This document shows positions 334 through 43,599 of a stretch of 55,137 nt of DNA, one piece after another (position 1 is the stretch's first letter; the number at the start of each line of letters is the position of its first letter). Made by a program: the position numbers and the translations under genes. The stretch comes from Planctomycetota bacterium (GTDB lineage: Bacteria; Planctomycetota; UBA11346). The stretch spans positions 1-55,137 of the forward strand of contig JBBQSO010000030.1 of NCBI GenBank assembly GCA_038213805.1. Direction: 5' to 3'. The notes beneath the pieces were generated by a model. It was given only the letters and a program-made list of their open reading frames with translations, searched no databases and was not told where the DNA came from.

Positions 334-3300
334 TTATTCCTTGGCGGCCCGCAGCGGGCTGGTCGCCTGAGCAGCGGAACCAATGTGGGGCGGCACCCTT
401 GAGGCGTCTGCGAGGTCCACGGTGGGTGCGCCCAGCGCCTCGCCGTCACGCCCACCGGTGGCCCCGGTCCCCCCACCAAAGATCCGGCGGCACCAGGCCG
501 ACAGATCGTCGAAGAGTGTGTACGCCACCGGCGTCACCAGCAGCGACAGCAGCAGGCTGAGCGCCTGGCCGCCGACGATCACGCGCGCCATGGCTGCACG
601 GCGGCCGGAGCCGGGGCCCTCGCCCAGAGCGATCGGTACCATGCTGGCGATCAGCATCAGGGTGGTCATCAGGATCGGGCGCAGGCGCACGCGGTTGGCC
701 TCTAGCACCGCCCACAGGCGACTGCACCAGGCAAGGTCGTGGCGGCCGACCCAGGCCCACCAGCGGCCGGCACCAGTCGGGGCGGCGTAGGCGGCGGGCA
801 GCAGCCCCGGCTCGTCGCGCAGCCGCACACGCAGGACGTTGGCGTAGTCGACCTGCAGGATGCCGTTCTTCTTGACGATGCCAAAGAGCAGGAAGATGCC
901 GAGGATCGAGTAGATGGTCAGCGGCTGGCCAAGCAGGATCAGCGAGATCAGCGCAAAGGGGATGGTGACCGGCACCGCGAGCAGGATCGCGATCGGCATC
1001 ACGAAGCTCTCGAACTGCGCGGCCAGCACCATGTACATGAACACCAGTGACAGGCCGAAGGCGAGCAGGAAGCCCTGGTTGGCCTCGACCTGGACCTTGG
1101 CGCGGCCGCCGGCGACCAGCCGATAGTCGGCGGGCATGCCGACCGCCGCGCCGGCGGCGACGAAGGCCGCGGCCGCCTCGCTGGTCGGGATGCCGTTGAG
1201 GTTGGCGACGATGGAGATCTTGCGCACGCGGTTGTAGCGGTCGATCTGCGCCGGGCCGCGCGCCTCGCTGAGGGTGGCGATGCTGGCCAGGCGCACCGGT
1301 GGCCCCCTGGTCGAGGGCACGCTGAGCGCCTCGAGCGCTGGCACGCCGTCGCGGTCTGCGCCCCGCGCACGCAGCCACACGTCGTAGAGCTCGCCCAGGC
1401 GGACGTCCTTGAAGTCCGAGACCACCTCGCCGCCGACCAGGGTGCCGAGCGTGCGCGCGGCGGCCTGCACCGACACCCCCTGGTCGCTGGCGCGCTCGCG
1501 GTCGATGACGACGCGGATCTCGGGTTTGCGCAGCGCCAGGGTGGTGTCGACGTCGCTGAGGTCGCCGCGCAGGCGCAGTTTCGCGACGATCGCGTCGGCG
1601 TAGGCGCCCAGGCGCTCCAGGTCGGGGCCGACCAGCGCGAACTCGACATCGGCGTTGACGCCACCGCTGCCGCCGGATGCGGGCTGGATGCTGGTGCGCA
1701 GGTCGGGCCAGTCAGCGACGATGGCGCGCGCGCGCGCCATCAGGTCGGCCTGGGTGAAGCGCCGCCCGTTCGCACCTGGTTGGCGCTGCCGCAGGTCGAT
1801 CAGGCGCACGTAGATGGTGGCCTTGGTGACCTCGCCGGCGGCCTTGGTGACGCGTCCCGAGGTGTCACCGATGGTGGTGAGCAGGTCGACGACCTCGGGC
1901 TGGGCGCGCAGCCGCGCCTCGAGCGCGCGGCAGGTGGCGTCGGTGCGCGCCAGCGTCCAGCCGGGTGGGGTGGTGATGGCGATCTCGAATTCGCTCTGGT
2001 CCTCGGTGGGCACGAAGTCGACGCCGGCGATCGCCGCCAGACCGGGGAAGTCGAGCCAGGCGAGGCGCTGCAGCGCGGCCGGATTGCCGAGGGCCAGCCA
2101 CCTGCCGAACGGCAGCGGGAACAGCAGCAACGCCACCGCCAGCGCCATGGTCATCACCAGCGCGCGCCGGCGCAGCGCCCAGCGCAGCGCGGCCAGGTAA
2201 GGCCGCTCGACCCAGCGCCCGTAGAGTCCGCCGCTGTGGTGATCGGCGCGCCCGCCCGGCGGGGCCGGCTTCAGCTTGAGGAAGCGCGACGCCAACATCG
2301 GCGTCAGCACGAAGCTGACCAGCATCGAGACCAGGATGGCGACCGCCATGGTGATGCCGAAGGAGTGGAAGAAGCGCCCGACGCGCCCGCTCATGAACGC
2401 CACCGGCAGGAAGATCACCACCAGCGACAAGGTGGTCGCGACCACCGCCAGGGCGATCTCCCTGGTCGCGCCGAGCGCCGCGTCCCAGGCGCTGACGCCC
2501 TTCTCCTCCATCCAGCGGAAGATGTTCTCATTCACCACCACCGCATCGTCGATGACCACGCCCACCGCCATGACCAGGGCGAGCATGGTGATGTTGTTGA
2601 GCGTGAAGCCCAGCCAGCCCATGACCATGAAGCTGGCGATCAGCGAGATCGGGATGGACAGCGAAGCGATGATCATCGTCCGCCAGTCGCGCAGGAAGAG
2701 CAGGATCGAGCCCGCGACCAGCAGCGCGCCCAGAAAGAGGTGCTTCTCGATCTCGTGCAGCGAGCCGCTGATGAACACCGACTGGTCGCGGATCAGGGTG
2801 AAGTGCAGGTCGGTGCGCCCGTCCTTACGGAAGCCCTCGGCGATCCCGGCGAGCTTGGCCTTCACCCGCGCGATGACGTCGATGGTGTTCGTGCCGCTCT
2901 GCTTCTGGACGACCAGCAGCACCGCGTTTTGACCGTCCAGCCGGCCCACCGAGCGGGGTTCCTCGACGCCGTCGGCGACCGTGCCGATATCGGCGATGCG
3001 CACCGGCTGACCGGCCTTCTGCGCGACGATGACGTCGGCGAAGCCCGTGGGATCGGCAATGCGCCCCATGGTGCGCAGGATCGGTTCGCGTCCCGCCTGG
3101 TCGACGCGCCCGCCGGGCGACTCGACATTCTGGCTCTGCAGCCCCTGGCGGACCTGGTCGATGGTCAGGCCGTAGGCCTCGAGCCGCGCCGCGTCGGCGG
3201 TGATGGTCACCGCGCGGCGCTGGCCGCCGACCAGCGACACCGCACCGACGCCGTCGACGCTGCTGAGCACGTCCTGGACCTGGCGGCGCGCGATCTCGGT

Positions 3301-3756
3301 GACCTCGCGCAGGCTGCGCTGGCCGTCAACGGCGACGGTCAGCACCGGCGCGGCGTCGAAGTCGAACTTGTCGATGATCGGCGCCTGGGTGCCGGTGGGC
3401 AGCGCCGCCAGCACGGTGTTGATCTTGCCCTGGACCTCCTGTTGGGCGATGTCCCGATTCTTCTCGAGCAGGAAGACGATCGTGACCGACGAGATGCCCT
3501 CCTTGCTGGTGCTGCGCAGTTCGTCGATGCCGCTGATGGTGTTGACCGCGTCCTCGATGACCTTGGTGACGCCGGTCTCCATCTCCTCGACCGAGGTGCA
3601 CGGGCGGGTGGTCGTGACGATCACCACCGGCAGGTCGACGTTGGGCATCAGGTCGACGCCGATGCGCGCGAACGCGATCAGGCCGGCGACCACCGGGAAC
3701 AGCAGCAGCATGCAGGCGAACACCGGCCGGCGGATGCACAGCTCCGGCAGGTTCAC
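334..3756 (-). CDS. RND efflux transporter permease (AcrB/MdtBC-like)
   Basis: GTG start overlapping the MFP stop (GTGA); N-terminal 'LCIRRPVFA'; proton-relay motifs 'VVIDDAVVVNENI', 'GIVKKNGIL', 'RLRPILMTT'; about 1140 aa. Confidence 0.93.
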   Translation of the reverse strand: MNLPELCIRRPVFACMLLLFPVVAGLIAFARIGVDLMPNVDLPVVIVTTTRPCTSVEEMETGVTKVIEDAVNTISGIDELRSTSKEGISSVTIVFLLEKNRDIAQQEVQGKINTVLAALPTGTQAPIIDKFDFDAAPVLTVAVDGQRSLREVTEIARRQVQDVLSSVDGVGAVSLVGGQRRAVTITADAARLEAYGLTIDQVRQGLQSQNVESPGGRVDQAGREPILRTMGRIADPTGFADVIVAQKAGQPVRIADIGTVADGVEEPRSVGRLDGQNAVLLVVQKQSGTNTIDVIARVKAKLAGIAEGFRKDGRTDLHFTLIRDQSVFISGSLHEIEKHLFLGALLVAGSILLFLRDWRTMIIASLSIPISLIASFMVMGWLGFTLNNITMLALVMAVGVVIDDAVVVNENIFRWMEEKGVSAWDAALGATREIALAVVATTLSLVVIFLPVAFMSGRVGRFFHSFGITMAVAILVSMLVSFVLTPMLASRFLKLKPAPPGGRADHHSGGLYGRWVERPYLAALRWALRRRALVMTMALAVALLLFPLPFGRWLALGNPAALQRLAWLDFPGLAAIAGVDFVPTEDQSEFEIAITTPPGWTLARTDATCRALEARLRAQPEVVDLLTTIGDTSGRVTKAAGEVTKATIYVRLIDLRQRQPGANGRRFTQADLMARARAIVADWPDLRTSIQPASGGSGGVNADVEFALVGPDLERLGAYADAIVAKLRLRGDLSDVDTTLALRKPEIRVVIDRERASDQGVSVQAAARTLGTLVGGEVVSDFKDVRLGELYDVWLRARGADRDGVPALEALSVPSTRGPPVRLASIATLSEARGPAQIDRYNRVRKISIVANLNGIPTSEAAAAFVAAGAAVGMPADYRLVAGGRAKVQVEANQGFLLAFGLSLVFMYMVLAAQFESFVMPIAILLAVPVTIPFALISLILLGQPLTIYSILGIFLLFGIVKKNGILQVDYANVLRVRLRDEPGLLPAAYAAPTGAGRWWAWVGRHDLAWCSRLWAVLEANRVRLRPILMTTLMLIASMVPIALGEGPGSGRRAAMARVIVGGQALSLLLSLLVTPVAYTLFDDLSAWCRRIFGGGTGATGGRDGEALGAPTVDLADASRVPPHIGSAAQATSPLRAAKE

Positions 3757-5081
3757 GACTTGGGGTTCCCCGCGCCGGCGGCGGCGACCGGGGCGCTTGG
3801 CGCAGCCGCTGGGGTGGGTGGCGCCGGCGCCGCGACCTTGACCGTCACCGCCACGCCACTGGCCAGCCTGCTGGTGCCGGTCACCACCAGCTGCTCGCCG
3901 CCGGCGAGGCCGCTGCGCACCTCGACCTCGTCGCCGACGCGCACGCCGATCTCGACCGGCAGCTCGCGCGCGAGGCCGTTTGCGACCGTGAAGACCTTCG
4001 TCACGCCGGCGAAGGCGATGATGGCGTCTGCAGGCGCCAGCAGCACGCTCTCGACGCGCGTGCGGATGGTGCCGTGCGCGAAGGCGCCCGCGCGCAGCGC
4101 ACCGGCGGCGTTCGGCACCAGCACCTCGACCGGCACGGTGCGTGCGACCGGGTCGATGCGCGGGCTGATGCGTTCGACCCTGCCGATCACCGGCGCGGCG
4201 ACGCCGGCCAGGTCGATGGCGACCAGCTGCCCACGCGCCAGCTCGCCCGCAAAGCGTTCGGGCACATCGGCCTTGAGCTTGAGGGCGCGGTCGGCGACCA
4301 CGCGGTAGAGGTTGGTGCCCTCCTTCACCCACTCGCCGGGCGCGACCAGGCGCGCGGCTACGCTGTAGGGCGGCAGGTCGGGCTGCGCCGCGTCAAGGAC
4401 CGCGGCCACGCCCAGGTCGGGCACGCGCACGCTGGTGTCGGCGAGGCGCTTGGCGGCGAGGTCGAGTTCTGCCTTGGCGGTGCGGGCCTGGGCGAGCAGC
4501 GCCTGGCTGGCGATGCGCTCGGCCTGCAGGTCGCGCTTGGCGATCTCGACACGGTTGCCGAGGTCCTCCAGGTCCTGGGCGCTGATCAAGTCGTTGCCGC
4601 CATTGGCAGCGGGCTGGAAGCGCTGGAAGCGGTGGCCTGCGCTGTCGACCAGGAGACGCGCGCGCGCCACGCCCGGCAGCGCCTCGACGTCAAGGTCGCC
4701 CTCCGGCAGGCGCACCAGACCGAGCTTGGCCAGGGATTCCTGCAGGGCGGCGGCGGCACGCGATTCGGCCAGGCGGTAGTCGCTGGGGTCGAGGCGCGCC
4801 AGCTCGTCCCCGGGACCGACGCGGTCGCCGAGGTCGCGCAGCACCTGTGCCACCGGGCCGGCAACACGGGCGGAGATCACCGCCTCTTCCTGGCCGGTCA
4901 GGGTGCCGGTCACCGCCACGCTACGCTGGACCTCGGCGCGATGGACTCCGCGCAGCTCAACCGGCACGGGCGCGGCGACCGCTGCGGCCTGGTCGGGAAC
5001 CTTGCCACAGCCGCACAACACCATGCACACGCCTGTCAGGGCGGTACCTACGACACGAACACGGAACGTCTGCAGGGACAT
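3753..5081 (-). CDS. RND efflux periplasmic adaptor (membrane fusion protein), probable lipoprotein
   Basis: Lipobox-like 'LCGC'; lipoyl motif 'GDRVGPGDELARLD', coiled hairpin, 'GRVERISPRID', 'LRAGAFA'; translationally coupled to the RND permease. Confidence 0.9.
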   Translation of the reverse strand: MSLQTFRVRVVGTALTGVCMVLCGCGKVPDQAAAVAAPVPVELRGVHRAEVQRSVAVTGTLTGQEEAVISARVAGPVAQVLRDLGDRVGPGDELARLDPSDYRLAESRAAAALQESLAKLGLVRLPEGDLDVEALPGVARARLLVDSAGHRFQRFQPAANGGNDLISAQDLEDLGNRVEIAKRDLQAERIASQALLAQARTAKAELDLAAKRLADTSVRVPDLGVAAVLDAAQPDLPPYSVAARLVAPGEWVKEGTNLYRVVADRALKLKADVPERFAGELARGQLVAIDLAGVAAPVIGRVERISPRIDPVARTVPVEVLVPNAAGALRAGAFAHGTIRTRVESVLLAPADAIIAFAGVTKVFTVANGLARELPVEIGVRVGDEVEVRSGLAGGEQLVVTGTSRLASGVAVTVKVAAPAPPTPAAAPSAPVAAAGAGNPKS

Positions 5082-5348
5082 GGACGACCTGATGAGGGAC
5101 GGGAACGCATGGGCGTCGAAGGAAGACGCCCGGAGAGGGTGGGACGTTGACTCTCGGCGCGGCCGGGCGGGGACAAGGGCGAGGCCGTTCCACGGTGGGC
5201 ACCGCCGCAGGTGCGCTGACCTTGGCCCCCGCTTTGACCACCGCGGGCGCCACAGAGCCAAGTGCCTGTTTTCAAGCGACTTTCGGACCTGCCCTGCGCC
5301 CGCTCCCCACGTGACAATCGCCATGCACCGCTAGGGTCCCAGGAGCCC

Positions 5349-8300
5349 ATGGATGACGGCCTCGATGCCTCCGTGACCACGCCCACCGCCGACCCCTCGG
5401 AAGGGGCCTCCGCGGGCACCGTCGACCTGGGCGTGCGCGTCACCACCGAGGGCTTCAGCGGGCCACTCGACCTGCTGCTCTACTTGGTGCGACGCACCGA
5501 ACTGGACATCGTCGACATCCCGCTGGTCCTGATCATCGACCAGTTCGTGGCGACGATCGGCCAATGGGCCGACCTCGATCTGGAGGTCGCTGGCGACTTC
5601 ATCGCCATGGCCGCGACCCTGCTCGAGATCAAGGCGCGCCTGATCGCCCCGCCGCCCGAAGAACCGGACGCCGCCGGCGACGACGAGGGCGACGCATTCG
5701 ACCCGCGCGCCGACCTGATCAACTCGCTGCTCGCCTACCGCCGCTTCAAGGAGGCGACCCAGGAACTGGCCGCGCGCGAGGACGCGCGCCGCGAACGCCG
5801 CGAACGCCAGCTGCGCGAGACCATCCCCGAGGACCCCGAGGACGAGCCCACCCTTGAGCTGGGCGCCGTCGATTCCCACCTGCTGCTGCGCACCTGCGAG
5901 CTGCTGATGGCGCGCATCAACGGCCTGGGCCCGCGCACGGTGACGGTCGACGATGTGCCGCTCGGCGTGCACATCGACCGCATCGTCGACGCGGTGCGTA
6001 CCCAGGGCACCAGCACGCTCGGCGCGCTGATCACCGCCGCGCCGACCCTGCTGGTGCGCGTCTCGACGGTGATGGCGGTGCTCGAAGGCACGCGCCAGCG
6101 CTTTCTGGAATCACGCCAGGTCGAGCAATACGGTGACGTCGGCCTGCGCTACCGCGACGAGGAGGAGCGCGCCCGCGTCAGCGAGCTGCCCCCAGAGTTG
6201 CCACCCGAGACGCGCCGCCGTCGCCGCCCGCCGCTGGTCACCTGGACGCCACCTGCGAGCGCCGCGCCAGCCGGCGAGGAGACACCCGCCGACGCCGCGA
6301 CCGACGAACCGGTCGAGAGCGACGACGAGCGCTTCCTGCGCGAGCTCGACGAATCGTGCCGGCTGAACGCGGTGCTGGCGGCGAGCGCCGATCTTGAACG
6401 CGCCTACACCGCCTTCCTGACCGAGCGGCATCCCGAACTCCTGCCGCCGGCGCCGGTGGCGGTGGCCGTCGCGAGCGCGGCGCCGGCGGTCGCGGCGCCG
6501 GCGGCGGAAATGGCTGCGCCGGCGGCCGTCGCACACGCGGCGCATGTCGTTCCGACCGCGACCGCTGCTGCGGTGGTCGCACCGCCAGCCGCAGCCGAAA
6601 CGGACCTCACGGCAGGCGTCACGCCGACTGCGACCGCCAGTGTCACGCCGCTGGACGCCGAGCTGTCGCCGGTCCCCGCCAGCGCGGACGCAACTGTGCA
6701 TCCCGCCACACCTGCTGCAGAAACCGTGGCCGCGGCTCCGCTCGCAACGCCGGTGGTGGATGCGGCGGCTGCGCATGCCGCAGATGCGATCGCAATCGAG
6801 CCCGTCGCGATAGCCGAGCAATCGCCCAGCCACGCGGTCGAGCCTGCCGCGCCGGACGGCGCAGACCGGCCCGCGGAACGCACCGTCAGCGTCGCCACCG
6901 TACCAGCGGAAGCGGAAGCGGCACCGAACCGCGAGGCGCCTGCCGTCGACGTGGTCCACTCCGCGTGCGCTCCGGTCGACGCCGTGGACCCGCGCGACGA
7001 GGCCGGTACCACGCCGGAGATCCCGGCGTGCGCCGCTTCCGATGCCGCTGCGGCGAGCACGGCGGATATCGCGGCGCCACCCACCACCGCCACCGATCTG
7101 CCCGCACCTGTGGACGGGCCTGCGGATGCGCTTGCTGCCAGCGCGCTGCCGCTGCGCGAGGACGCAGGCACCACCGGAGTCGTCGACGCGATGCCCGCCC
7201 AGACGCACGCGATGTCGCCAGCCGACACCCTGCTCGCGCTGGCGGCACCGGCACTCGCCCAGGAAGTTGCGGGCGGGCAGACCGACACGACTGGAGACGG
7301 CTTCGCCTCACCTGCGGGGGAGACCATCTCCGCCCTGGATCCGATCGTGAAATCCCCAGTGCCCATGGCCGACCTGACGCAGGACGGCAGCGCAGCGACC
7401 GTCGCACCCATCCCCGCCAGCGCCGAAGTCGACCGCTGGTCCTCGCGCGATGACGAACCGCGCGCCTGGCCGGTCGAAGCGGCGGCGGCCGCACTGGAAG
7501 CGCGCCTGCTGGACCACGCATCCGACGAGGACGAGGCGGAGCCCACGCCCGCGCCGGAAAGCGACGACGAGCTGACCGCCTCCGACGATCCCGCCAGCGC
7601 CAATGCCATGCTGCTGCGCGAACTCGCCGCCGCTGCCGAGACGCGCCGCGCCGCGCTCGAGCGCGAGCTCCAGCGTCAGCGGGAACGGGAGGCTGCCGCA
7701 GCAGCAGCTGCCGCAACGGAAGTGGAAATCGCAGCGACAGCGGCAGCGCAGACACCTGCTGCATCCGCGCCGCTGCAAGCCGAAGCCCCGGTCGCTGCGG
7801 TGGCGGATGTGACTGCGACGACCATGGAGGCCAGCGCCGCACTGGCCGCGTCAGCGCCCGCACTCAGCGTTGATGAACCCGCAGACCTCACCGCCATCGA
7901 GGCGGCAGCTCCCGCCTTCCTGGAACCGGTCAAACCGGCGCACTGGGAAGATGACGTCGACGTTGAGGCGGAGCCGGAGATCCCGCCCGCCGAGGAAACG
8001 TCGCAAGGCGACGACATTGCGAGCGGATCACGGAGCGATGCGCACGCGGCAGCGCCGATCCCCATTGCGGACAGCGACGCACCCGCTGCAGATGTTGCGC
8101 ACGACGCCTCCGCCATCGCGCCCACTGCGCCAGCGGAGGCCGTGCACGCGACGACGGCGGCGGAAGATGCCCAGCCTGGGATCGCTGAGGTGCACGCGGC
8201 TGTGACACTCCCGGCCGAGTACAACGTGGCGATCCCAGCAGCGGACGCCCACGCGCAGGACGCCTCCGCCATCCCACCTACCGCGCCAGCGGAGACCGAG

Positions 8301-10262
8301 CTCGCGACGACGGCGGCGGAAGATACCCAGTCTGGGATCGCCGAGATGCTCGCGGCGGAGCGACTCCTGGCCGAGGACAACCCGGCGATCCCAGCTGCGG
8401 CCATCACTGCGCTCGCCAGCGCTCCCGCAGCGGAGTTCGCAGCATCCGACGCCGACGCCGACGCCAGCGCGCGCCCACGCCCGCCTTCGCGCCCGTCGAC
8501 CCCGGTCAGCCGCGCCGCCACCGAGACGCGCCTGCATCCGATCCTGCCCGAGGACAACGACGCGCCGCCACCACCACCACCGGATCCGGGCCCGCCACCG
8601 GGCCGCCGCCCGCGGCGACCAGCGACCTTCCCGCTCGGCTCCTCCCCGACCACGCTCCTCCTTCCGAACACCCCGCAGAAAACCCAGCGCCACCCCATGC
8701 CCGCCCCTCCCCTCCACCGCCGTCCATGGTTCGCCGCGACCGCCGGGTTCGCCTTGGCCGGTCTCGCCGGCTGGGCGGCGTACGAGTGGCTGCTGTGGCT
8801 GCCCAAGGACATCCTCGAGGTGACCAGCGGACCGCTGCCCGACCAGGAGATCAGCGGCCGCGCCACGCTGCGCTGGAGCTTCAATCTCGACGTGGTCACT
8901 CCTGAGCAGGTCGGCAAGGCCGAGGTCAAGCCGCCGACGTTGACCCCGTCCACCGCGGGTACGTGGACGTGGACCGACCGCCGCTCGCTGTCGTTCACCC
9001 CCGACCAGCCGCTGGTCGATGGCACGCCCTACACCATCGCCTTGGCCAAGGACCAGCTGCGCACCAGCGCAGGCTTCCGCCTCGCCCAGGATCTGCGCGC
9101 CAGCGTGCACACCCCGGCGCTGGCGGTGCGCGAGGCGCGCCTGGTCACCTACGCCGATAACGGCGCGGCAATGGTCGAGATGCTCTTCAACCAGCCGGTG
9201 GACCCCGCCGCCATCGCCAAGCGCCTGGTCGTCGAGGCCCCAGGCGGTGAAGGCGCCACCAAACCGACGGTCATCGCCCAGGGCACCGCGCACGCGGCGG
9301 TCGTGCGCTTCGCGATCGCCGGTCTGCCCCAGCCGGCCATCACGAAGGACAGCGCACCGCCCACCGACCTCGCCGCCGCCCTTTCCGGTGGCGCGCTACT
9401 CAGTGCGCCGGCCGGTGGCCACGTGATCAGCCATCCCGGCGTCACCGCGCTCCTGCACCTGCCCAGCGGCACCACCGGCGCCGGCGGTCCGCTCGGCCTG
9501 GCCAGCGAGTGGAGCAGCGCGCTGCCCCTGGGCGCGACCCTGGCGATGACCGACGCGTGGGCGCAGATCCCGGCCGCCGGCGATGCCACCGTGCACCTCG
9601 GCCTGAGCGGTGGCGGCATCCCCGACGACCTGCTCGCCAGACTCATCCACGTCACGCCCGCCGTGCGCGTGAAGATCGAGGCCGTGCCCGGAGGCCTGAT
9701 CCTGCATGGCGGCTTCACGCCCGGCGAGAGCTACACCGTGGCGCTCGACGCGGTATGGCCTGACCATGGCGACGATCCGACCCTGGCGCTCGCCACCCTG
9801 CCGGCCGCCTGCACCGCGACCCTGGCCATCCCGCAACGCCCGCGCGCGCTATGGCTGGAGCGCGTCGACGGCGGCGGCCAGGTGAGCGTGCGCGGCAGTC
9901 GTGTGGAGTCCGCCGCGCTCGCAGTCTATCCTGCCGACGCGGCCGCCGACACCGCACCGCTGCGCCAGGAGCGCGTCACGCTCGCCACCACCTCCGAGGG
10001 GGAGCCCGCACGGCTGCGCCTGGACGCGCAGCGCCTGCTGCGCGATCTGCCCACCGGAGCGTATGACGTGCGCCTGGCCGGCGAGGTTGGCGACGCCGAT
10101 GCCGAGAGCGCGCCGGCGCTGACCATCAGGCTGCACCTCGACGCAGTCGCGGTCGCGCCCGGGGCGGTCGCTGCCGGTCTCGGCCGCTGGACGCTCGCGC
10201 GCCTGCGCGGTGAAGAAGATGAGGGCGTCGCCCTGGCGATCGGGCGGGCCGAGCCTAGATGA
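5349..10262 (+). CDS. scpA: Segregation/condensation protein A (SMC kleisin) fused to a long disordered linker, a TM helix and Ig-like/alpha-2-macroglobulin-like domains
   Basis: AGGAG RBS before ATG 5349. ScpA motifs 'FSGPLDLLLYLVRR', 'AGDFIAMAATLLEIKAR', 'DPRADLINSLLAYRRFKEA', 'MAVLE..RQ...Q..YGD'. No stop until 10262. TM 'WFAATAGFALAGLAGWAAYEWLLWL' at about 8727-8804. Confidence 0.85.
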   Translation: MDDGLDASVTTPTADPSEGASAGTVDLGVRVTTEGFSGPLDLLLYLVRRTELDIVDIPLVLIIDQFVATIGQWADLDLEVAGDFIAMAATLLEIKARLIAPPPEEPDAAGDDEGDAFDPRADLINSLLAYRRFKEATQELAAREDARRERRERQLRETIPEDPEDEPTLELGAVDSHLLLRTCELLMARINGLGPRTVTVDDVPLGVHIDRIVDAVRTQGTSTLGALITAAPTLLVRVSTVMAVLEGTRQRFLESRQVEQYGDVGLRYRDEEERARVSELPPELPPETRRRRRPPLVTWTPPASAAPAGEETPADAATDEPVESDDERFLRELDESCRLNAVLAASADLERAYTAFLTERHPELLPPAPVAVAVASAAPAVAAPAAEMAAPAAVAHAAHVVPTATAAAVVAPPAAAETDLTAGVTPTATASVTPLDAELSPVPASADATVHPATPAAETVAAAPLATPVVDAAAAHAADAIAIEPVAIAEQSPSHAVEPAAPDGADRPAERTVSVATVPAEAEAAPNREAPAVDVVHSACAPVDAVDPRDEAGTTPEIPACAASDAAAASTADIAAPPTTATDLPAPVDGPADALAASALPLREDAGTTGVVDAMPAQTHAMSPADTLLALAAPALAQEVAGGQTDTTGDGFASPAGETISALDPIVKSPVPMADLTQDGSAATVAPIPASAEVDRWSSRDDEPRAWPVEAAAAALEARLLDHASDEDEAEPTPAPESDDELTASDDPASANAMLLRELAAAAETRRAALERELQRQREREAAAAAAAATEVEIAATAAAQTPAASAPLQAEAPVAAVADVTATTMEASAALAASAPALSVDEPADLTAIEAAAPAFLEPVKPAHWEDDVDVEAEPEIPPAEETSQGDDIASGSRSDAHAAAPIPIADSDAPAADVAHDASAIAPTAPAEAVHATTAAEDAQPGIAEVHAAVTLPAEYNVAIPAADAHAQDASAIPPTAPAETELATTAAEDTQSGIAEMLAAERLLAEDNPAIPAAAITALASAPAAEFAASDADADASARPRPPSRPSTPVSRAATETRLHPILPEDNDAPPPPPPDPGPPPGRRPRRPATFPLGSSPTTLLLPNTPQKTQRHPMPAPPLHRRPWFAATAGFALAGLAGWAAYEWLLWLPKDILEVTSGPLPDQEISGRATLRWSFNLDVVTPEQVGKAEVKPPTLTPSTAGTWTWTDRRSLSFTPDQPLVDGTPYTIALAKDQLRTSAGFRLAQDLRASVHTPALAVREARLVTYADNGAAMVEMLFNQPVDPAAIAKRLVVEAPGGEGATKPTVIAQGTAHAAVVRFAIAGLPQPAITKDSAPPTDLAAALSGGALLSAPAGGHVISHPGVTALLHLPSGTTGAGGPLGLASEWSSALPLGATLAMTDAWAQIPAAGDATVHLGLSGGGIPDDLLARLIHVTPAVRVKIEAVPGGLILHGGFTPGESYTVALDAVWPDHGDDPTLALATLPAACTATLAIPQRPRALWLERVDGGGQVSVRGSRVESAALAVYPADAAADTAPLRQERVTLATTSEGEPARLRLDAQRLLRDLPTGAYDVRLAGEVGDADAESAPALTIRLHLDAVAVAPGAVAAGLGRWTLARLRGEEDEGVALAIGRAEPR
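8103..8400 (+). repeat. Intragenic 156-bp (52-aa) tandem duplication in the ScpA linker
   Basis: GACGCCTCCGCCATC at 8103 and 8259; GATCCCAGC(A/T)GCGG at 8231 and 8387; peptide 'DASAI.PTAPAE...ATTAAED.Q.GIAE' occurs twice. Confidence 0.9.
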
Positions 10263-10305
10263 CCGCCGGACGCGCGGGAACCGACTTCCATCAGGCGGGG
10301 ATCCC

Positions 10306-10995
10306 ATGCCATACGCCGACCTGAAACCGGTCGCGGCCGGCAGGCCGCAGTTGCTGTTTTTCTGCGGTGGCTTCGTACTCACGATACTCGCCGGCGCGGT
10401 CAACGTCGCGATGCTCTCCTTCTATGCCGTGCCGGTCAGCCACATGAGCGGCGCGGTGTCGCGCGTGGGCATGGACCTGGGCGCACGCCATTACGAGGAC
10501 CTACCGGTCATCGGCATGATCATCGGCGCCTTCGCCCTCGGCTGCGCCCTGACCGGGGCCCTGGTCGGGGCCAGCACGCTCGCCGATCGCGACCGCTACA
10601 CCTGGGTCATGGCCTGCGAGGTCGCCGCCCTGGGCGCGGCAGCCGCGCTGCTAGGCGGGGCGGTGAACGCCTCGGTGGTGCTGTGTGCCTGCGCCTGCGG
10701 CATCCAGAACGCGATGGCAAGCAGCTACTACGGCCTGGTGGTTCGCACCACCCACGTCACCGGCATCATCACCGACCTCGGCTTCATGGTTGGCGCCAGC
10801 CTCACCGGCCGGCGCTTCGCGCCCTGGAAATACCTGCTGCTTACCCTGCTGGTTTCCGGCTACCTCACCGGGGGCTGCGCCGCCGCGGTGATCATGCCCG
10901 CCTGGCCAGGCGCGATGCTGTGGGGCTGCTGCGGGCTGGCCGCGGCGATCGCCTTCGGCTGCCACGTGCTCCAGCGTCGCGCGCGCCCCGGCTGA
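10306..10995 (+). CDS. YoaK/DUF1275 family membrane protein
   Basis: 'AGAVN', 'SHMSG', 'GIQNA', 'RTTHVTGIITDLG' motifs; several TM segments. Confidence 0.85.
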   Translation: MPYADLKPVAAGRPQLLFFCGGFVLTILAGAVNVAMLSFYAVPVSHMSGAVSRVGMDLGARHYEDLPVIGMIIGAFALGCALTGALVGASTLADRDRYTWVMACEVAALGAAAALLGGAVNASVVLCACACGIQNAMASSYYGLVVRTTHVTGIITDLGFMVGASLTGRRFAPWKYLLLTLLVSGYLTGGCAAAVIMPAWPGAMLWGCCGLAAAIAFGCHVLQRRARPG

Positions 10996-11149: not shown

Positions 11150-11596
11150 ATGCCGCCACCTCCGTCCCGACGTTTCGCGCAGCGCCCACGTACGGGGCGC
11201 ACCACCGCCACGCTGCCGCGTCCCGGGACCGGGCGCCAGCAGGCCCGTGGCCGCAGCAGCACCGCGCTGCGGGGCACCAGTCGCAAGACCAAGGTGCGGG
11301 GTGAAAACCCTACGCTCGGGATCATTTCAACGGTGTGCTTCGCGTTATTCTGGGTGTTCATTTTGCTGGCGATCAACGGCGTGCTCACCTCGGCCGCCAG
11401 CCACGATACCGGCCGATTGATGGCTTCGGCTGGGCTCGGACTATTCAGCTACATCTTCCCCTTCGTTGGGCTCGCGACGGGCATCGCGGGCCTGGTCCAT
11501 CGCCGTTCGCAGCGCGTCATGGCGTGGATCGGCGTGGTGCTCAACGGCGGTCTGCTGGTGTTCTTCTTGGTCTCCATCCTCGCCAACCACCACTAA
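11150..11596 (+). CDS. Hypothetical 3-TM membrane protein with an Arg-rich N-terminus
   Basis: Three hydrophobic helices in the C-terminal half ('LGIISTVCFALFWVFILLAI', 'GLGLFSYIFPFVGLATGIAGL', 'MAWIGVVLNGGLLVFFL'); start uncertain. Confidence 0.6.
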   Translation: MPPPPSRRFAQRPRTGRTTATLPRPGTGRQQARGRSSTALRGTSRKTKVRGENPTLGIISTVCFALFWVFILLAINGVLTSAASHDTGRLMASAGLGLFSYIFPFVGLATGIAGLVHRRSQRVMAWIGVVLNGGLLVFFLVSILANHH

Positions 11597-11731
11597 AAAG
11601 CAGACGCGGACCGCGCCTGCGGGCGTCGGCGGTTGACAGTCACGGTCACGCGGCACAGCATGCCGCCGGCGGTCGCTGCAAGCGGGTGCGGGCGCTGCGG
11701 ACTGTCGCTCCATCCCGCCGAGGACGACCCC

Positions 11732-12196
11732 GTGCACGCCGACGCTTTCTGGCGCCTCATCGCCTTGATCGACCAGCCCCAGCTCGCCGCCAGCGACGAG
11801 AGCGGCGCGCTTGCCCCCCTCCAGGCCGCGCTCGAGGAAGTCGAGACCGACGAGCTGTTCGCCTTCGACGAGCTGCTGGCGCGCGCGTTGTACGAGCTCG
11901 ACACGCCGCGCCACCTCGACGAGGCCGGCGCCTCGAGCACCTCGGCCGACGCCTTCCTGTATGCGCGCTGCTGGGTGGTCGCACGCGGCCTAGAGCACTA
12001 CGTTGCGGTGCGCAAGGATCCCGCGCTCATGCCGCAGACACTTGAAGAATGGTGCGAACCGCTGCTGCTGGTTGCGCAAGAGGCGTGGGCCGCAAAGACC
12101 GGCGCGGACCCGGCCGACTATCCGCACATCTCGACGGTCAGCTACGAGACCGGCGCGAACCAAGCGGCATGGCGCGGCCGGCGGCCGGATCTCTAG
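11732..12196 (+). CDS. DUF4240 domain protein
   Basis: GAGGA RBS and GTG start; 'FWRLI', 'F...L...LY.LD', 'SADAFLYARCWVVARG..Y..V..DP', 'SYETGAN..W'. Confidence 0.8.
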   Translation: MHADAFWRLIALIDQPQLAASDESGALAPLQAALEEVETDELFAFDELLARALYELDTPRHLDEAGASSTSADAFLYARCWVVARGLEHYVAVRKDPALMPQTLEEWCEPLLLVAQEAWAAKTGADPADYPHISTVSYETGANQAAWRGRRPDL

Positions 12197-12203
12197 GGAC
12201 GGC

Positions 12204-12923
12204 TCAGAAGCGGTAGCCGAACGAAACGAACGGGGCCAGCCCGCGGCTGCGGATGGTGACGGTTTCGCTGAGGTCGCCGCCATTCACCAAGTCGAACTGC
12301 AGCTTGCCGTGGGTGCGCGTGACCTGATAGCCGACGCCGAGCCCGATCTGCAGGTGGTTGCGGCTGCCCGTGTAGTAGACGGCGGTGCGCACGCCGTACT
12401 CGATCGAGCTGCCGCTGCCGCTCTCAGCGCGGGTGACCGCCTGGTTGCCGCCGACGATGCCGCGATCGGTCAGCTTCGCGAAGGCTGCCCCGGCAAAAGG
12501 CACCACCTCGAGATGGTAGGAGCCGGCGAGGTGCGCGGCGAGGCCCAGGCCGAGATCCATGCCTTGGGTGCCGATCTTGATCGGACCGACGATCGGGGTG
12601 ATGCGGTTGTCGTCCTCGGCGGTCGCCTGTTGGGCGTCGAACACCGCGATGGCCAAGATCAGCGAGCAGCCACTGCTGATCCGGGCAAGGTGCAGGGTGG
12701 GGCCCAGATCGACACGCACCCCGGGATGCGCGCCCGCGATTTCTTCGCTGGCGCTGCCTCCCGGGTCTACGTAATCGATATGCACTGGCTTGCTGGAAGG
12801 CAGGCGGGTGATGGTCAGGCGCAGGTCGTCGAAGGAGAAGCCGTCGGCGGCCATCAGCGCGGGGCAGGCGCCCAAGCCCATGGCCAGACCGAGGATCGCT
12901 CCAGGAAACCGCTGTCTGGACAT
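12204..12923 (-). CDS. Putative outer-membrane beta-barrel protein
   Basis: Signal peptide, amphipathic beta-strands, C-terminal 'FVSFGYRF' beta-signal. Confidence 0.7.
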   Translation of the reverse strand: MSRQRFPGAILGLAMGLGACPALMAADGFSFDDLRLTITRLPSSKPVHIDYVDPGGSASEEIAGAHPGVRVDLGPTLHLARISSGCSLILAIAVFDAQQATAEDDNRITPIVGPIKIGTQGMDLGLGLAAHLAGSYHLEVVPFAGAAFAKLTDRGIVGGNQAVTRAESGSGSSIEYGVRTAVYYTGSRNHLQIGLGVGYQVTRTHGKLQFDLVNGGDLSETVTIRSRGLAPFVSFGYRF

Positions 12924-13000
12924 GGAACCTCGCTCGCTGGGCCGTGGGATGACCTGCAAGGATGGCTCACGCGCGCGCGGCTGTCAAATCGGGAACGGCC

Positions 13001-13816
13001 TCAGCCGGGGGCGACCGGCTGAACGGTGACGACGACGGTGGCCAGGTTGTTGGCCTTGGAGCCCTCGACGACCAGGTTCTGCGGGTCCAGGACCACGTTG
13101 TAGACATGGGTTCCGACGCTGGTGGCGGGCACGGTCAGCAGCAGCGAGGCGCTGAGGGTCGCGGCGATGTCCGGCATGGTCCCGCTCGCGACCACCACGG
13201 CCGGGGTCACTGAGGTGTCGAGCACCTGCACCGCGACGCCGCTGGCGGTCAGGCCTTTGAGCGAGGTGTCGATATTGGTCACCGTCACGGTCAACTCGAT
13301 AGCGGTGGCCGTGGTCACCACCGCCGGCGCCACCGCCGGCGCTGCCAGCACCAGGTCGAAATCTGCGAAGGCGACCACCGCGCTCGCGGTGTTGTTGGTC
13401 TCGTTCATCTCAGGGATGAGATTGTCGGGATCGATGACCATGAAGTAGGTGTGCAGGCCCAAGGCGCCGCTGTCGGTGGTCGGGTCGATGGTCAGGGTCA
13501 CCGGCACATGGGACTGGCCGGCCACGCTGGCGACGGTGCCCGAGGCGATCGGGGCGGTGGCGGGATCGTCACGGAAGACCCGAAAGGAGATGTTGGTCAG
13601 CGCTTCATGCGCGGTGTTGAACAGCGAGAAGGTGATGATCGCGGGACTGGTCGTCGAAGGCGTGGGCAACGCCACCGGCGGCGTGGTGGTCGAAGTCACA
13701 GTCGGCACGCCGGAGAAGGTCAGGTCGACGAAGTCGAAGGTCTTGCCCGGGCTGGTGCAGCCGGCCAGCAGCGCGGCGAGCAGGATGGCTGGGACGAAGA
13801 CCAGGGTGGTGCGCAT
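13001..13816 (-). CDS. CARDB-domain lipoprotein
   Basis: Lipobox 'LAGC'; two CARDB-like repeats 'VIDPDNLIPEMNETNN' and 'VLDPQNLVVEGSKANN'. Confidence 0.8.
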   Translation of the reverse strand: MRTTLVFVPAILLAALLAGCTSPGKTFDFVDLTFSGVPTVTSTTTPPVALPTPSTTSPAIITFSLFNTAHEALTNISFRVFRDDPATAPIASGTVASVAGQSHVPVTLTIDPTTDSGALGLHTYFMVIDPDNLIPEMNETNNTASAVVAFADFDLVLAAPAVAPAVVTTATAIELTVTVTNIDTSLKGLTASGVAVQVLDTSVTPAVVVASGTMPDIAATLSASLLLTVPATSVGTHVYNVVLDPQNLVVEGSKANNLATVVVTVQPVAPG

Positions 13817-19073: not shown

Positions 19074-22000
19074 TCAGGCGCCAGCGACCGCGCGCAGCTC
19101 TCCGCTCTCCAAATCGACGATCGCCATCCCCGCGATCGGCCCACTGAGGTGCGGTGCGAGCAGGGCCGCATACCTGCGCACCTGCTGAGCGGCCGCAGCC
19201 TCGTCCGCCGCACCGCCGCTTTTGTAGTCGTAGATCCACCACGCCCCGTCCTCGTCCTGGACGAGCACATCGCAGACGCCGACCACCAGCGCACCATCCG
19301 CGTCAGGCAGCGTGCCGATCACAGGCTGTTCGCGCAGCACGCTGCGCGCGCGGCGATAGCCGGGAATCAGTTCCGGGTCGGTCAAGCTGCGCAGCAGACG
19401 CTGCGCGCGCGCCGCGTCGAGCCCGGCGCGGAATGGCGCCAGCGCCACCTCGGCCTGCGCGCGCGCCATGCCGGGCTCGTAGCGCGCGAGAGCGTCGTGC
19501 AGGGCGGTGCCCAGTTCCTGGGCGCGTGCGCGCGCGCCAGAGCCCCCACGCGACGCCGCTGGCCCCTCTTCGGCGAGCAGATCGGTCACGCTGCGTACGA
19601 GCATTTCGTCTGCGGGCTGCGCAGTCGCCAGCGCGGGCAGCTCGCCCTGTTCCGGCTGTGCCCGCGGTGCCGCCTGCGGCGGCGCATCAAGATCGACGAC
19701 GGCCTCGCGCCACGGCGTACCGGCCCCGGCGAACCAGTCAGCGTAGCAGCGCACGCTCAGGTCGCCGAGCGGACCCGTGGCCTGCGGCCCGGCGCACAGC
19801 GCGTGCAGCTCCTCGCGCGCGCGTGTGCAGGCGACGTAGAACAGGCGCGCCTCCTCGGCGAGCAGGCGCAGGCGTCGCTCGTCGGCAAGTACGCCGGCGG
19901 CCAGGCTAATCGGCGCAGGGTCTTCCGCCTCTCCGTCGTCCACACCCGGATGGCAGGCGAGGTGCAGCCCCTCTTCGGCCGGCAGCGCCAGGACCCGGGC
20001 GGTGAGATCGCGACGATCGAAGGGCCGCTGGCAGTCGGGCAGGAACACCACCGGCCATTCCAGGCCCTTGGCCTGGTGGATGGTGAGCAGGCGCACGCCG
20101 CGACTGCCGAGATCCTCGCCGCCCGCTTCTTCCGCGTCGACGCCCAGACGGCGGCGCTCGGCGAGGCGCGCGACGAAGGCGGGCGCGTCGAGGGCGATCC
20201 CGGCCCGCACCTCTTCCTCGGCGAGACGCGCGAGGTTGGCGAGTCGGCGCCGCGCCAGCGGCAGGAGCGCATAGCGCGCAGCGACGCGCGGATCGGCGCC
20301 CAGCGCACGCAGCGCCGCAGCAACGCCTTCATCGGCGAGTACGACCCGTACCTCGGCGACCAGCGCGCCGAGCGGCGTACGCGCCGCGGCCCACGCCCAC
20401 CCCGCCGCCGGCTCCTGCTCAAGGGCCGCGACCAGCAGTCGGCGATCCTGCGGATCCGCGGCGCCCCACGGCCCGCCCAGGGCGATGGCCAGGGCGCGGC
20501 GGTCGTGCGGATTGATGCACAGGCGCAGCACCGCCTCGAGATCGTGGCATTCCTGGCTCTCGTAGAGCCCGCCAGGGAAATCCGTGTCGTAGGGGATGCC
20601 GGCGGCCTCGAGCGCGCGCGCATACAGGCGCATGCGACCGCGCGTGCGCAGCAGAATCGCGTGCGCCTCGGCCGGCCGGCCGGCCTGCAGCGACGCGGCG
20701 ATCACGGCGGTGATGTGCAGGGCCTGAGCCTGGCTGGCGTCGATGGCGGTGGCCTTGACCTCCACCTCCGCGCCATCGCGCTGCGCGACTACGCGCCACG
20801 CGTGCAGGATGCCAGGACCAGGGAAATCCGCAGCCTCGCGGCCGGCCAGGATCGCCTGCGGGCGGAAGGCCGAGACCAGCGCGTCCTGGGCGAACACGCC
20901 GCGCACCGCGGCGAGCAGGGCCGGATGACTGCGGAAATTATGTTTGAGATCGGCCTCGATGCCGCCGCGCCCGCCGATCGCCGCGCCCCAGCGCGCGAAG
21001 ATCGCCGGCTCCGCGTGGCGGAACCCAAAGATGCTCTGGCGGTGGTCGCCGACCACGAACACCCGCGCCGAACCGGATGGCGCGCCCCCCTCCTGGATGC
21101 GCTCGATGATCCGCCCTTGCAGGCGGTTGAGGTCCTGCGCCTCGTCGAGCAGCAGGTGGCGGTAGCGCGCCCCGAGACGCGTACGCGCCGCCGGCCGTTC
21201 GAGCAGCGCCAGGGCCTGGGCCTCGACGCTGGCGAAGCCGGCCTGGCCGAGGCGCAGCGCGGCGCGGTCGCGGTGCGCGAGCCAGTCGGCGGCCAGTCGG
21301 GCGAAGGCCGCCGCACGCCCGGCGAACAGCGCCTCGTCCGCGGGCCGCCAGCGGCCCAGCGCGGCGATGCTGGCGAAGGCCACGCGTGCCTCCTTGCCCG
21401 GGCGGGAATCGCCGCTGCGTTGACTGGGGAAGTCGACGGCGTCCTGGATGGCGCGCACCGTCTCCTTGACCGCATCGTCACGAACTCCGGCCAGCGACAG
21501 CGCGTCGAGCGCCGCACACCACGTCCCGAGCGCCGCCGGATCTGTGGGCGCGCTGCGCGCCAGGGCACGCAGCGTGTCCAGGACCTTGCCCTTGGCCGCC
21601 AACCCGTGCGCATCGTCCAGAGCATCGGCGAGCGCAGCGAACAGCGCCGCACGCCGCGCGCGCACCAGCGCGACCGCATCGCCGGGCAGCGCGGCCAGCA
21701 CCGGCTCCGGCAGTGCCGCCGCCTGTTCCGCGAGGCGCATCACCAGACCGCGCACCGGTTCCCTGCCATAGGCATCGATGAGCATGGCGAGATCGCCACC
21801 ATCGCGCTGCTGAGCGGTCAGCGCCGCCCAGGCCTGCTCGCGCGCCTGGGCCCAGGCGAGGTCCTCCTGCGGGCGTAGGTCGGGATCGCGGCCGAGTTCC
21901 GCCGCGTGCTCCGCCACCCAGGTCAGGCACAGCGCATCAAAGGTGGCGATGGCGGCGCCGGGCAGGGCACCCAGGCAGCGGCGCAGATGATCGATGCTGG

Positions 22001-22319
22001 TCGGCGGCAGGTCGCGCTCAACGTGGCCCTCGCCATCGCTCAGGCGTGGGAAGCGGCCCAGCGCCAAAACCTCCCGCAGGGTGCGCTCGATGCGCGCGCG
22101 CAGGTTGGCCGCCGCCTCGCGCGTGAAGGCCACGGCGAGGATGCGCTCCGGGCCGAGCGGCTCGCCGTCGACCTCGGACAGCAGGCAGGCGACGTAGCGC
22201 ACCGCCATCACCGCGGTCTTGCCGGCACCCGCGCCAGCCGCGGCCAGCACCGGGCGATCGACCAGGAAGGCCGCACGCCGCTGTTCGTCGGTGAACGTGG
22301 TCCACGAGCGCTCAGCCAT
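19074..22319 (-). CDS. addA: AddA-type UvrD helicase/RecB-like nuclease
   Basis: SF1 motifs 'AGAGAGKT', 'AFTREAAANLR.RI', 'DEAQD', 'VGDHRQSIFGFR', 'NFRS', 'TIHQAKGLEW', 'EEARLFYVACTRA'; nuclease 'G..LH', 'GVCD', 'DYKSG', 'Q..RY'. Confidence 0.9.
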   Translation of the reverse strand: MAERSWTTFTDEQRRAAFLVDRPVLAAAGAGAGKTAVMAVRYVACLLSEVDGEPLGPERILAVAFTREAAANLRARIERTLREVLALGRFPRLSDGEGHVERDLPPTSIDHLRRCLGALPGAAIATFDALCLTWVAEHAAELGRDPDLRPQEDLAWAQAREQAWAALTAQQRDGGDLAMLIDAYGREPVRGLVMRLAEQAAALPEPVLAALPGDAVALVRARRAALFAALADALDDAHGLAAKGKVLDTLRALARSAPTDPAALGTWCAALDALSLAGVRDDAVKETVRAIQDAVDFPSQRSGDSRPGKEARVAFASIAALGRWRPADEALFAGRAAAFARLAADWLAHRDRAALRLGQAGFASVEAQALALLERPAARTRLGARYRHLLLDEAQDLNRLQGRIIERIQEGGAPSGSARVFVVGDHRQSIFGFRHAEPAIFARWGAAIGGRGGIEADLKHNFRSHPALLAAVRGVFAQDALVSAFRPQAILAGREAADFPGPGILHAWRVVAQRDGAEVEVKATAIDASQAQALHITAVIAASLQAGRPAEAHAILLRTRGRMRLYARALEAAGIPYDTDFPGGLYESQECHDLEAVLRLCINPHDRRALAIALGGPWGAADPQDRRLLVAALEQEPAAGWAWAAARTPLGALVAEVRVVLADEGVAAALRALGADPRVAARYALLPLARRRLANLARLAEEEVRAGIALDAPAFVARLAERRRLGVDAEEAGGEDLGSRGVRLLTIHQAKGLEWPVVFLPDCQRPFDRRDLTARVLALPAEEGLHLACHPGVDDGEAEDPAPISLAAGVLADERRLRLLAEEARLFYVACTRAREELHALCAGPQATGPLGDLSVRCYADWFAGAGTPWREAVVDLDAPPQAAPRAQPEQGELPALATAQPADEMLVRSVTDLLAEEGPAASRGGSGARARAQELGTALHDALARYEPGMARAQAEVALAPFRAGLDAARAQRLLRSLTDPELIPGYRRARSVLREQPVIGTLPDADGALVVGVCDVLVQDEDGAWWIYDYKSGGAADEAAAAQQVRRYAALLAPHLSGPIAGMAIVDLESGELRAVAGA

Positions 22320-25149: not shown

Positions 25150-25162
25150 GGGCTGGGAAAGA

Positions 25163-25229
25163 GGAAGGGCGGAAGGGCGGAAGGGGAGGACGGGGAGGAG
25201 GCGAGGCACGAGTCGCGAGTGGCGAGACC
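25163..25229. repeat. Short tandem repeats upstream of addB
   Basis: GGAAGGGC x2 + GGAAGGGG, then degenerate 7-mers CGAGGCA CGAGTCG CGAGTGG CGAGACC. Confidence 0.5.
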
Positions 25230-25296
25230 TGGTCCGGGGGCACGTTGGGGCTGGACGCGGCGCAGGGAAGCGAACTCCGGGACCGCAGCCCCGGCG

Positions 25297-37030: not shown

Positions 37031-37065
37031 GCTGATGGCTGATGGCTGATGGCTGATGGCTGATG
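37031..37065. repeat. Heptamer tandem repeat (GCTGATG)x5
   Basis: Read directly; the same unit occurs at 49286 and, inverted, at 52766. Confidence 0.92.
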
Positions 37066-43585: not shown

Positions 43586-43599
43586 GGCGGTGTCCTCGT

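Follow-up and report, generated by a model that had tools for sequence, protein, structure and literature searches.

Kleisins are the soluble subunits that close the rings of complexes built on SMC (structural maintenance of chromosomes) proteins. The bacterial kleisin ScpA (Pfam family PF02616; structures 3w6j, 4i98, 3zgx and 5h66) is typically a small, soluble protein of about 250 amino acids (aa) that consists of an N-terminal helical domain, a central segment and a C-terminal winged helix. The alpha-2-macroglobulins (A2M) of bacteria are periplasmic proteins that are anchored at their N-termini. Here we describe a gene on contig JBBQSO010000030.1 of a Planctomycetota bacterium (assembly GCA_038213805.1; the 55,137 nucleotides (nt) analysed are referred to as the window) whose predicted product carries elements of both families. 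This protein possesses both end domains of ScpA and probably the central segment, with 34-41% identity to Geobacillus ScpA over the aligned part. Unlike typical ScpA it is 1637 residues long, about six times the usual length, the additions being a clade-specific hairpin, a 738-residue acidic leash, a transmembrane helix and periplasmic domains, and the scpB gene does not lie beside it. This is a new domain architecture of the known ScpA family, and the protein is neither a typical ScpA nor an alpha-2-macroglobulin. The best reading of the data, to which we give a probability of roughly 0.55, is that it is a kleisin paralogue that would tether SMC to the cytoplasmic membrane. Positions of all features are collected in Table 1.

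The kleisin nature of the N-terminal region, or head, was examined at the level of both sequence and predicted fold. The SMC_ScpA model (PF02616) matched with an E-value of 1.8e-19, covering model positions 1-227 of 232. The N-terminal helical domain (residues ~33-157), which binds the SMC neck, was recognised by Pfam, by sequence alignment with the ScpA chains 3w6j_A (2.5e-29) and 3zgx_C (2.4e-16) of the PDB and by a Foldseek match to 3w6j_A. Over the central helices, which would hold the ScpB-binding segment, the alignment extends to residue 147 with 3w6j_A and to residue 182 with 4i98_A, both of which are ScpA chains of ScpAB core complexes. An AlphaFold2 (AF2) model of the head region (alignment A3) had a mean predicted local distance difference test (pLDDT) score of 71.2, with values above 90 in the winged helix (residues 205-275). 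In Foldseek this winged helix superposed on the SMC-head-bound ScpA domain 5h66_C with a TM-score (target) of 0.85 and a root-mean-square deviation (rmsd) of 1.8 Å. It was also matched to 4i99_C (0.74) and 5xg3_C, and the AF2 head model superposed on 3w6j_A. Sequence profile matches to 5xg3_C and 5h66_C were weak (~2e-3). Given the sequence and fold matches at both termini, both SMC-binding ends are therefore present, in agreement with an earlier note on this DNA, made from its letters, which had described the first ~270 residues as ScpA with both of these ends. By prediction the head is a complete kleisin that could in principle bind ScpB and complete the ring of SMC.

The head belongs to a single uninterrupted open reading frame (ORF), as had been claimed: an ORF scan found the frame open from position 5262 to the TGA at 10260-10262. 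The start Met at 5349 is common to the homologues P0002, P0040, P0044, P0052, P0056 and P0057 in BLASTP alignments. The G+C content of the window is ~72%, so that long ORFs often arise by accident, and the acidic linker that follows the head and hairpin is overlapped by five shadow ORFs (325-449 aa). No Pfam family was found in the eight ORFs that lie over the linker on the opposite strand or in other frames, and these were discounted as high-GC shadow ORFs. The 738 linker codons contain no stop in the frame of the gene, as against 1-10 stops in the other five frames, and a stop-free linker was obtained in none of 1000 first-order Markov simulations (mean 8.8 stops expected). Other claims of the earlier note also held for this region. 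Between 8521 and 8700 stop trinucleotides are absent from every frame and 50 of the 61 codons end in G or C, and the proposed anatomy of ScpA, helical part, acidic linker, HRR patch, transmembrane helix and beta-sandwiches agrees segment by segment with Pfam, composition and AF2.

Further evidence for a genuine fusion came from relatives. A search among proteins of 916-2916 aa returned 60 hits of 916-1808 aa, here called long forms. BLASTP by segment found both the ScpA head (46-95% identity) and the hairpin in 58 of the 60, the transmembrane helix and C-terminal module in 27, and the middle of the linker in one, P0002. Transmembrane segments were scanned for with a strict definition (one uncharged, Pro-free hydrophobic stretch) and with relaxed criteria for the remainder. 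A single such segment was seen in all 59 long forms scanned (51 strict, eight relaxed) and in none of 76 shorter ScpA proteins described below. Linkers of the long relatives vary widely in length and sequence and yet the reading frame is kept, which argues for selection on a single polypeptide. The combination of ScpA with a transmembrane helix, which had been proposed as something to seek in related genomes, is thus conserved, along with the hairpin and a linker, in 58 database proteins and is not split by a stop. Continuous fused ORFs are also present in contigs of metagenome-assembled genomes (MAGs), namely L001 (980 aa, counted from the start of the match), L002 (1073 aa) and L006 (1564 aa), and in L004 the frame changes only where a stretch of N intervenes. 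The long loci have no neighbour genes in common. The source databases name the long-form proteins plainly 'segregation and condensation protein A'. Two third-party annotation (TPA) bins with a long gene, L002 and L004, are labelled Brocadiaceae and Kuenenia; the G+C contents of these loci are 61% and 69%, and the labels look unreliable.

These observations bear on the idea that the gene is an artefact or pseudogene, in which scpA became connected with a gene downstream, across non-coding DNA, by an assembly error, a frameshift or the loss of a stop. Long open frames are commonplace at 72% G+C, several shadow ORFs (300-450 aa) lie over the linker, and G+C at third codon positions (GC3) is lower in the linker than in the domains. 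Against this stand the recurrence of the architecture in 58 independent database clusters and three continuous MAG ORFs with differing linker lengths, the failure of any of the 1000 simulations to yield a stop-free linker, and a GC3 of ~0.9 in the flanking domains. We regard an artefact as very improbable.

The second half of the architecture is formed by the membrane anchor and the domains beyond it. In an AF2 model of a 526-aa C-terminal piece a helix occupies residues 15-39, which is the position of the predicted transmembrane segment. The C-terminus of the protein lies ~486 residues beyond this segment, and the AF2 model of these last 486 residues (alignment A2; mean pLDDT 85.7, predicted TM-score 0.68) resolves four immunoglobulin (Ig)-like domains with limits at ~1156-1256, 1259-1336, 1351-1456 and 1461-1601, followed by a terminal helix at 1604-1619. 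Foldseek searches with this model returned generic tandem Ig/FN3 arrays only, with TM-scores of 0.1-0.2 and no specific family, and the link to alpha-2-macroglobulin therefore rests on sequence. With the last 526 residues as query, an exhaustive phmmer search returned 345 hits at E <= 1e-3, fused relatives among them. Many of the hits are proteins of ~1800-2100 aa that are matched over their own first ~190-400 residues; examples of the A2M family are P0195 (1.4e-33) and P0208 (4.2e-23 over query residues 12-408). Macroglobulin (MG) domains were found by Pfam in 12 of the 20 phmmer hits analysed with it and nine of these 12 are full-length members of the A2M family, with Big_5, bMG3, MG2, bait region, A2M and bMG10 and, in seven of the nine, the thioester domain (TED). 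In the window protein Big_5 scores 22.1 bits, just below the cut-off of 23.6, and it reaches 27.8 bits in the 90%-identical P0182. Pfam at E <= 1 found no bMG3, MG2, bait region, TED or bMG10 in the window protein.

The anchor and periplasmic module is, on this homology, the captured 5' end of an alpha-2-macroglobulin-like gene. It resembles bacterial A2M proteins in having an N-terminal transmembrane anchor followed by Ig-like domains of the Big_5/MG1 type. It differs from the complete series of that family (Big_5/MG1, bMG2, bMG3, MG2, bMG5, bMG6, bait region, A2M, TED and bMG10) in that only the membrane-proximal N-terminal module was captured. A guess made earlier that the C-terminus is of the bMG/A2M type is thus borne out by phmmer and Pfam for the N-terminal A2M module and fails for the remaining A2M domains. 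Lys and Arg residues are more numerous upstream than downstream of the transmembrane segment in 42 of the 51 strictly defined long forms, equally numerous in three and fewer in six. Because of this bias, and because of the homology to N-terminally anchored periplasmic A2M proteins, ScpA and the leash are placed on the cytoplasmic side of the membrane and the Ig-like domains on the periplasmic side, which supports the N-in/C-out (positive-inside) topology suggested before.

A Met lies at codon 1117, 10 residues before the transmembrane helix. Of the fused rows in alignment A2, all 21 whose sequence extends upstream carry it, and L004 does as well. The consensus around it, written with TM for the transmembrane helix, is PM[PS]xPP..R.W-TM-VPRxVLEV, and its surroundings are an otherwise poorly conserved Pro-rich stretch. 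A Met within 18 residues upstream of the transmembrane segment occurs in 28 of 51 long forms, a number close to the size of the A2M-type group defined below. Standalone gene calls that begin exactly at the internal Met exist in the databases (P0182, P0184, P0185, P0191, P0193 and P0228). Two of the standalone calls, P0191 and P0193, were traced to their DNA; P0182, P0184, P0185, P0190 and P0228 were not. P0193 was ruled out as a split gene, being an internal-Met call identical to part of the continuous L006 ORF, and P0191 was likewise ruled out as a gene call made after the run of N in L004. P0186-P0189, which might have been taken for separate transmembrane-Ig proteins, proved to be fragments truncated at the 5' end, with their first residues in the linker or hairpin. 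Met1117 is most simply explained as the start codon of the captured A2M-like gene, and, given its invariance, it may still be in use as a start.

One ORF could have two products, initiation at Met1117 also giving a 521-aa transmembrane-Ig protein, the ancestral product, with the fusion perhaps a minor species. The presence of this Met in 22 of 22 fused A2M-type relatives, amid sequence that is poorly conserved, speaks for this, as do the six gene calls that start at its position and the 28 of 51 long forms with a closely placed Met. No Shine-Dalgarno-like motif was found upstream of the ATG in the four loci examined, however, and both of the DNA-traced standalone calls are artefacts. Furthermore, there is no stop upstream of Met1117, such that translation of ScpA must run through the transmembrane helix; internal initiation can therefore supplement the fusion and cannot replace it. 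We consider the two-product explanation unlikely. The same evidence divides an objection raised earlier, that a separate protein starts at 8697: the invariance of the Met favours such a start, whereas without an upstream stop the fusion product remains.

Between the head and the anchor lie three further elements. The first is a basic patch, in which L296 and T298 are invariant across 59 long forms and which is disordered in the AF2 model. The second is an acidic helical hairpin in which E323, R328 and F329 are invariant; AF2 placed its helices at residues 325-337 and 339-360 with pLDDT values of 87-95. A complex prediction with two copies of the hairpin (residues 315-372) scored 0.00 and was counted neither for nor against any reading. 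The third is the linker, of which 30% is Ala and 13% is Pro and which carries a net charge of -86. The motif DDPAxxNAxL is carried, once to three times, by 14 of 63 long forms and fragments; all 76 short forms lack it. In the longest subfamily the linkers contain one to three copies of DDPAxVNAALL/Q, which looks like a docking site for some partner. Linkers evolve by in-frame tandem duplication, as with the 156-bp unit present 1.9 times in the window, and in L006 linker units of ~70 aa are repeated several times at ~11500-13200.

A search among proteins of 222-707 aa identified the shorter ScpA proteins, about 76 proteins of 262-549 aa with 40-58% identity, the same hairpin and no transmembrane segment. 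These soluble forms (~400 aa) are like the long forms in the ScpA core, the basic patch and the hairpin, at an identity of 47-54%. They are unlike them in ending with a short acidic tail, in lacking the transmembrane helix and the linker motif, and in their conserved synteny. In the short loci L003, L005 and L007 real stops follow the acidic tail, and the order ispH(LytB)-scpA-tRNA-Met(CAT) is found in all three (L003 5225-7496, L005 1123-3586 and L007 1857-4383). No scpB lies beside the short scpA in these three loci, and neither ispH nor tRNA-Met was found near the window gene.

A FastTree phylogeny of 146 rows placed 69 of the 76 short forms in one clade, a sister to the long forms. The seven short rows that fell inside long clades come from contigs of 1-8 kb, two of them being named 'partial', and were treated as truncated long forms. 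They were excluded from an IQ-TREE analysis of 83 rows (the window, 40 of the 58 long proteins, three long loci, 28 of the 76 short proteins, three short loci and eight outgroups), in which all 31 short rows formed one clade (support of 87 in the Shimodaira-Hasegawa-like approximate likelihood-ratio test, SH-aLRT). In an approximately unbiased (AU) test a single clade of long forms was not rejected (p = 0.655; constrained tree +6.55 log-likelihood units). The long protein P0013 (1412 aa) and the short protein P0105 (412 aa) are each listed on a 709,370-bp contig with the same sources and very probably share one contig. Long and short forms are therefore probably paralogues, and the genome of the window may also hold a soluble ScpA. 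It had been suggested that a separate scpA, with the present copy degenerate, would undermine the fusion. A soluble ScpA clade does indeed exist, but the long copy is not degenerate, its core residues being kept and its GC3 being ~0.9.

With a soluble paralogue that might take over the housekeeping role, it may be asked whether the fold has been repurposed, such that the head no longer serves SMC but is the adaptor in an envelope machine for a different partner in the cytoplasm. The head scores under the NCBIfam equivalog cut-offs, and the ScpA core of the long forms is somewhat more divergent than that of the short forms (mean pairwise identity 0.535 versus 0.638). On the other hand, the core residues conserved in short forms are kept in long forms with one fixed difference, and the winged helix superposes closely on the SMC-head-bound domain 5h66_C. 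The PADLOC defence families, which include the Wadjet/Mks kleisins JetA and MksF, gave no match to the window protein at E <= 0.01. Repurposing seems to us the least likely of the functional alternatives considered here.

If the membrane-tether reading is correct, the gene would encode one bitopic inner-membrane protein. Of the two ScpA paralogues of this uncultured, high-GC lineage of Planctomycetota, it would be the one anchored in the membrane. Its N-terminal ~275 residues would close the SMC ring and bind ScpB in the cytoplasm. A probably disordered acidic leash of ~740 residues would span from the hairpin to the membrane, where a helix of the signal-anchor type would be followed by four Ig-like domains in the periplasm. 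From polymer scaling we estimate that a disordered chain of 738 residues would have a contour length of ~280 nm and an end-to-end distance of a few tens of nm, and the strong negative charge of the linker should hold it extended and off DNA and anionic lipids. An SMC ring closed by the anchored kleisin would be confined to a shell beneath the membrane, and a sub-population of SMC complexes with their entrapped DNA would probably be kept no farther from the cytoplasmic membrane than the leash reaches. Should SMC translocate, it would draw DNA past a point that does not move. In a fuller and more tentative version, which we think possible, a duplicated kleisin has been welded to a captured anchor to give a trans-membrane chromosome tether in which the Ig-like domains link to the periplasm or cell wall, and the internal start maybe supplies a second product.

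Several observations weigh against the membrane-tether reading. The NCBIfam ScpA equivalogs NF000992-NF000995 matched below their cut-offs (best score 129.5 bits against 315), and the scan of window ORFs turned up neither an SMC nor a ScpB gene. GC3, at ~0.9 in the folded domains, drops to 0.66-0.85 across the linker. Composition alone can therefore be read either way over this segment, where the argument is carried by the open frame kept in relatives. Standalone calls start at the internal Met, an example being the 90%-identical P0182 on a contig of 3105 bp. Long and short forms in one genome are a single case, that of P0013 and P0105, deduced from equal contig size alone, and among the matches listed no assembly with both forms was seen for the seven close MAG loci, in a genome scan whose patterns fit both forms and in which several MAGs have low coverage. 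Finally, the last 300 residues of 59 forms fall into an A2M-like type (28), a second type (16) and 11 small groups (15 forms). With the periplasmic part varying between subclades in this way, a role specific to the Ig-like module would not be general, and the feature constant across the long-form family is the predicted transmembrane anchor itself.

The layout of a cytoplasmic effector, a single transmembrane helix and a periplasmic domain is also that of single-pass anti-sigma factors. This suggests an alternative in which the anchored ScpA is inactive or localised and a soluble ScpA is freed by cleavage in the linker or within the membrane, the periplasmic domains acting as sensor for a signal from the envelope or the cell cycle. 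In favour are the length, exposure and rapid evolution of the linker, and the descent of the periplasmic module from the alpha-2-macroglobulins, a family that interacts with proteases. Neither a protease site nor a partner was identified, however; the A2M bait region and thioester domain are absent by Pfam at E <= 1, and the soluble short paralogue probably supplies free ScpA already. A sequestered, releasable kleisin seems to us about as unlikely as a second product from Met1117.

Table 1. Features of the fused scpA gene and its surroundings in the window, with related ScpA tails at other loci.
Feature	Residues	Position	Strand	Basis or remark
Shine-Dalgarno-like AGGAG		5341..5345	+	3 nt 5' of the ATG at 5349; direct sequence reading
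Whole gene		5349..10262	+	1637 codons plus TGA stop
Complete ScpA kleisin region	1-275	5349..6173	+	Pfam PF02616, PDB matches, AF2, Foldseek
Conserved basic patch RRRRRPPLVT	289-298	6213..6242	+	kept in long and short forms
Acidic helical hairpin, 'ESDDERFLRELDES...'	322-361	6312..6431	+	common to long and short forms
Acidic Ala/Pro-rich linker	373-1110	6465..8678	+	composition; probably disordered
Motif DDPAxxNAxL	746-755	7584..7613	+	inside linker
In-frame 156-bp tandem duplication, 1.9 copies		8097..8400	+	Tandem Repeats Finder; 85% matches, no indels
Internal Met1117	1117	8697..8699	+	10 residues before the transmembrane helix; invariant; start codon, fossil or still used
Juxtamembrane basic patch HRR	1123-1125	8715..8723	+	predicted cytoplasmic side
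Single transmembrane helix, 25 residues	1127-1151	8727..8801	+	composition and AF2
Predicted periplasmic module		8802..10259	+	residues 1152-1637; four Ig-like beta-sandwich domains and terminal helix; AF2, phmmer
Terminator-like hairpins		10333..10356	+	consensus scan; weak, inside the next ORF (DUF1275, 10210-10995)
ScpA tails with 'P[IV]PI.E[IL]P'				L010, L015, L019, L021, L022, L024, L027, L031, L034, L038, L044, L047, L050, L059, L061, L063, L066

A promoter scan found nothing. Upstream of the gene, at 334-5324 on the minus strand, lies a divergent efflux pair of the resistance-nodulation-division (RND) type, comprising an AcrB-like pump and a HlyD-type membrane-fusion protein. About 580 nt of the 1332-aa pump ORF are shared with the fusion-protein ORF, and the pump is matched by Pfam from residue 197 onwards; what lies upstream of that match is probably an extension of the ORF owed to high GC rather than coding sequence. 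Two large overlapping ORFs at 19074-25296 (minus strand), one with a UvrD-type helicase and PD-(D/E)XK nuclease and the other a second PD-(D/E)XK protein, resemble an AddAB pair. A BatA/VWA aerotolerance-type pair at 37050-41944, and a PSCyt1/PSCyt2/PSD1 protein beside DUF1501 at 42176-47154, are planctomycete hallmarks and support the phylum assignment.

Other extensions of ScpA were encountered. Many ScpA proteins labelled Phycisphaerae or Pirellulales are of 300-375 aa and have tails with one or two copies of 'P[IV]PI.E[IL]P' (Table 1), a different clade-specific extension. Another tail, 'TDWRDPETGE..YDWP' followed by a basic 'RAERRA' stretch, was seen in L017, L036, L049, L073 and L076, of which three are labelled Phycisphaeraceae, L073 Phycisphaerales and L036 'uncultured bacterium'. 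In L080 (10001-12403), a low-GC (37%) Planctomycetota chromosome, the ScpA frame continues for ~800 aa into an unrelated Ser/Asn-rich tail, and this is a second, independent long ScpA. The 1069-aa protein P0060, a single-member cluster, has amino-acid permease domains (PF13520 and PF00324) followed by an ScpA domain at 765-878 and is either another membrane-linked ScpA fusion or the product of a lost stop codon.

If SMC is indeed tethered in this way, the protein would connect loop-extruding SMC complexes directly to the cell envelope through a link encoded in the genome, and would provide a natural experiment on an immobilised SMC motor, with the anchored and the soluble paralogue open to side-by-side comparison. 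There would also be a bearing on the positioning of chromosomes in bacteria without the usual division and segregation landmarks. As background to such a link, the earlier note mentioned that planctomycetes lack FtsZ and have condensed nucleoids. The gene documents a clear fusion in which an A2M-like 5' end was captured with its start codon. Full-text literature searches turned up no account of any ScpA anchored in the membrane or fused to A2M, which fits the previous claim that the architecture is undescribed. In the matching passages of PMC12419801 ScpA and ScpB appear only as the neighbours of another gene, and PMC7203096 gave no such passage in the text searched.

Parallels in concept lie among leash-type membrane tethers and chromosome-membrane links, in which a membrane anchor and a flexible linker carry a domain that grips a cytoplasmic machine or the chromosome. 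ZipA, Noc, RacA-DivIVA and PopZ-ParB share this plan and have no sequence relationship to the window protein. To our knowledge none of the four contains a kleisin or a periplasmic Ig-like module.

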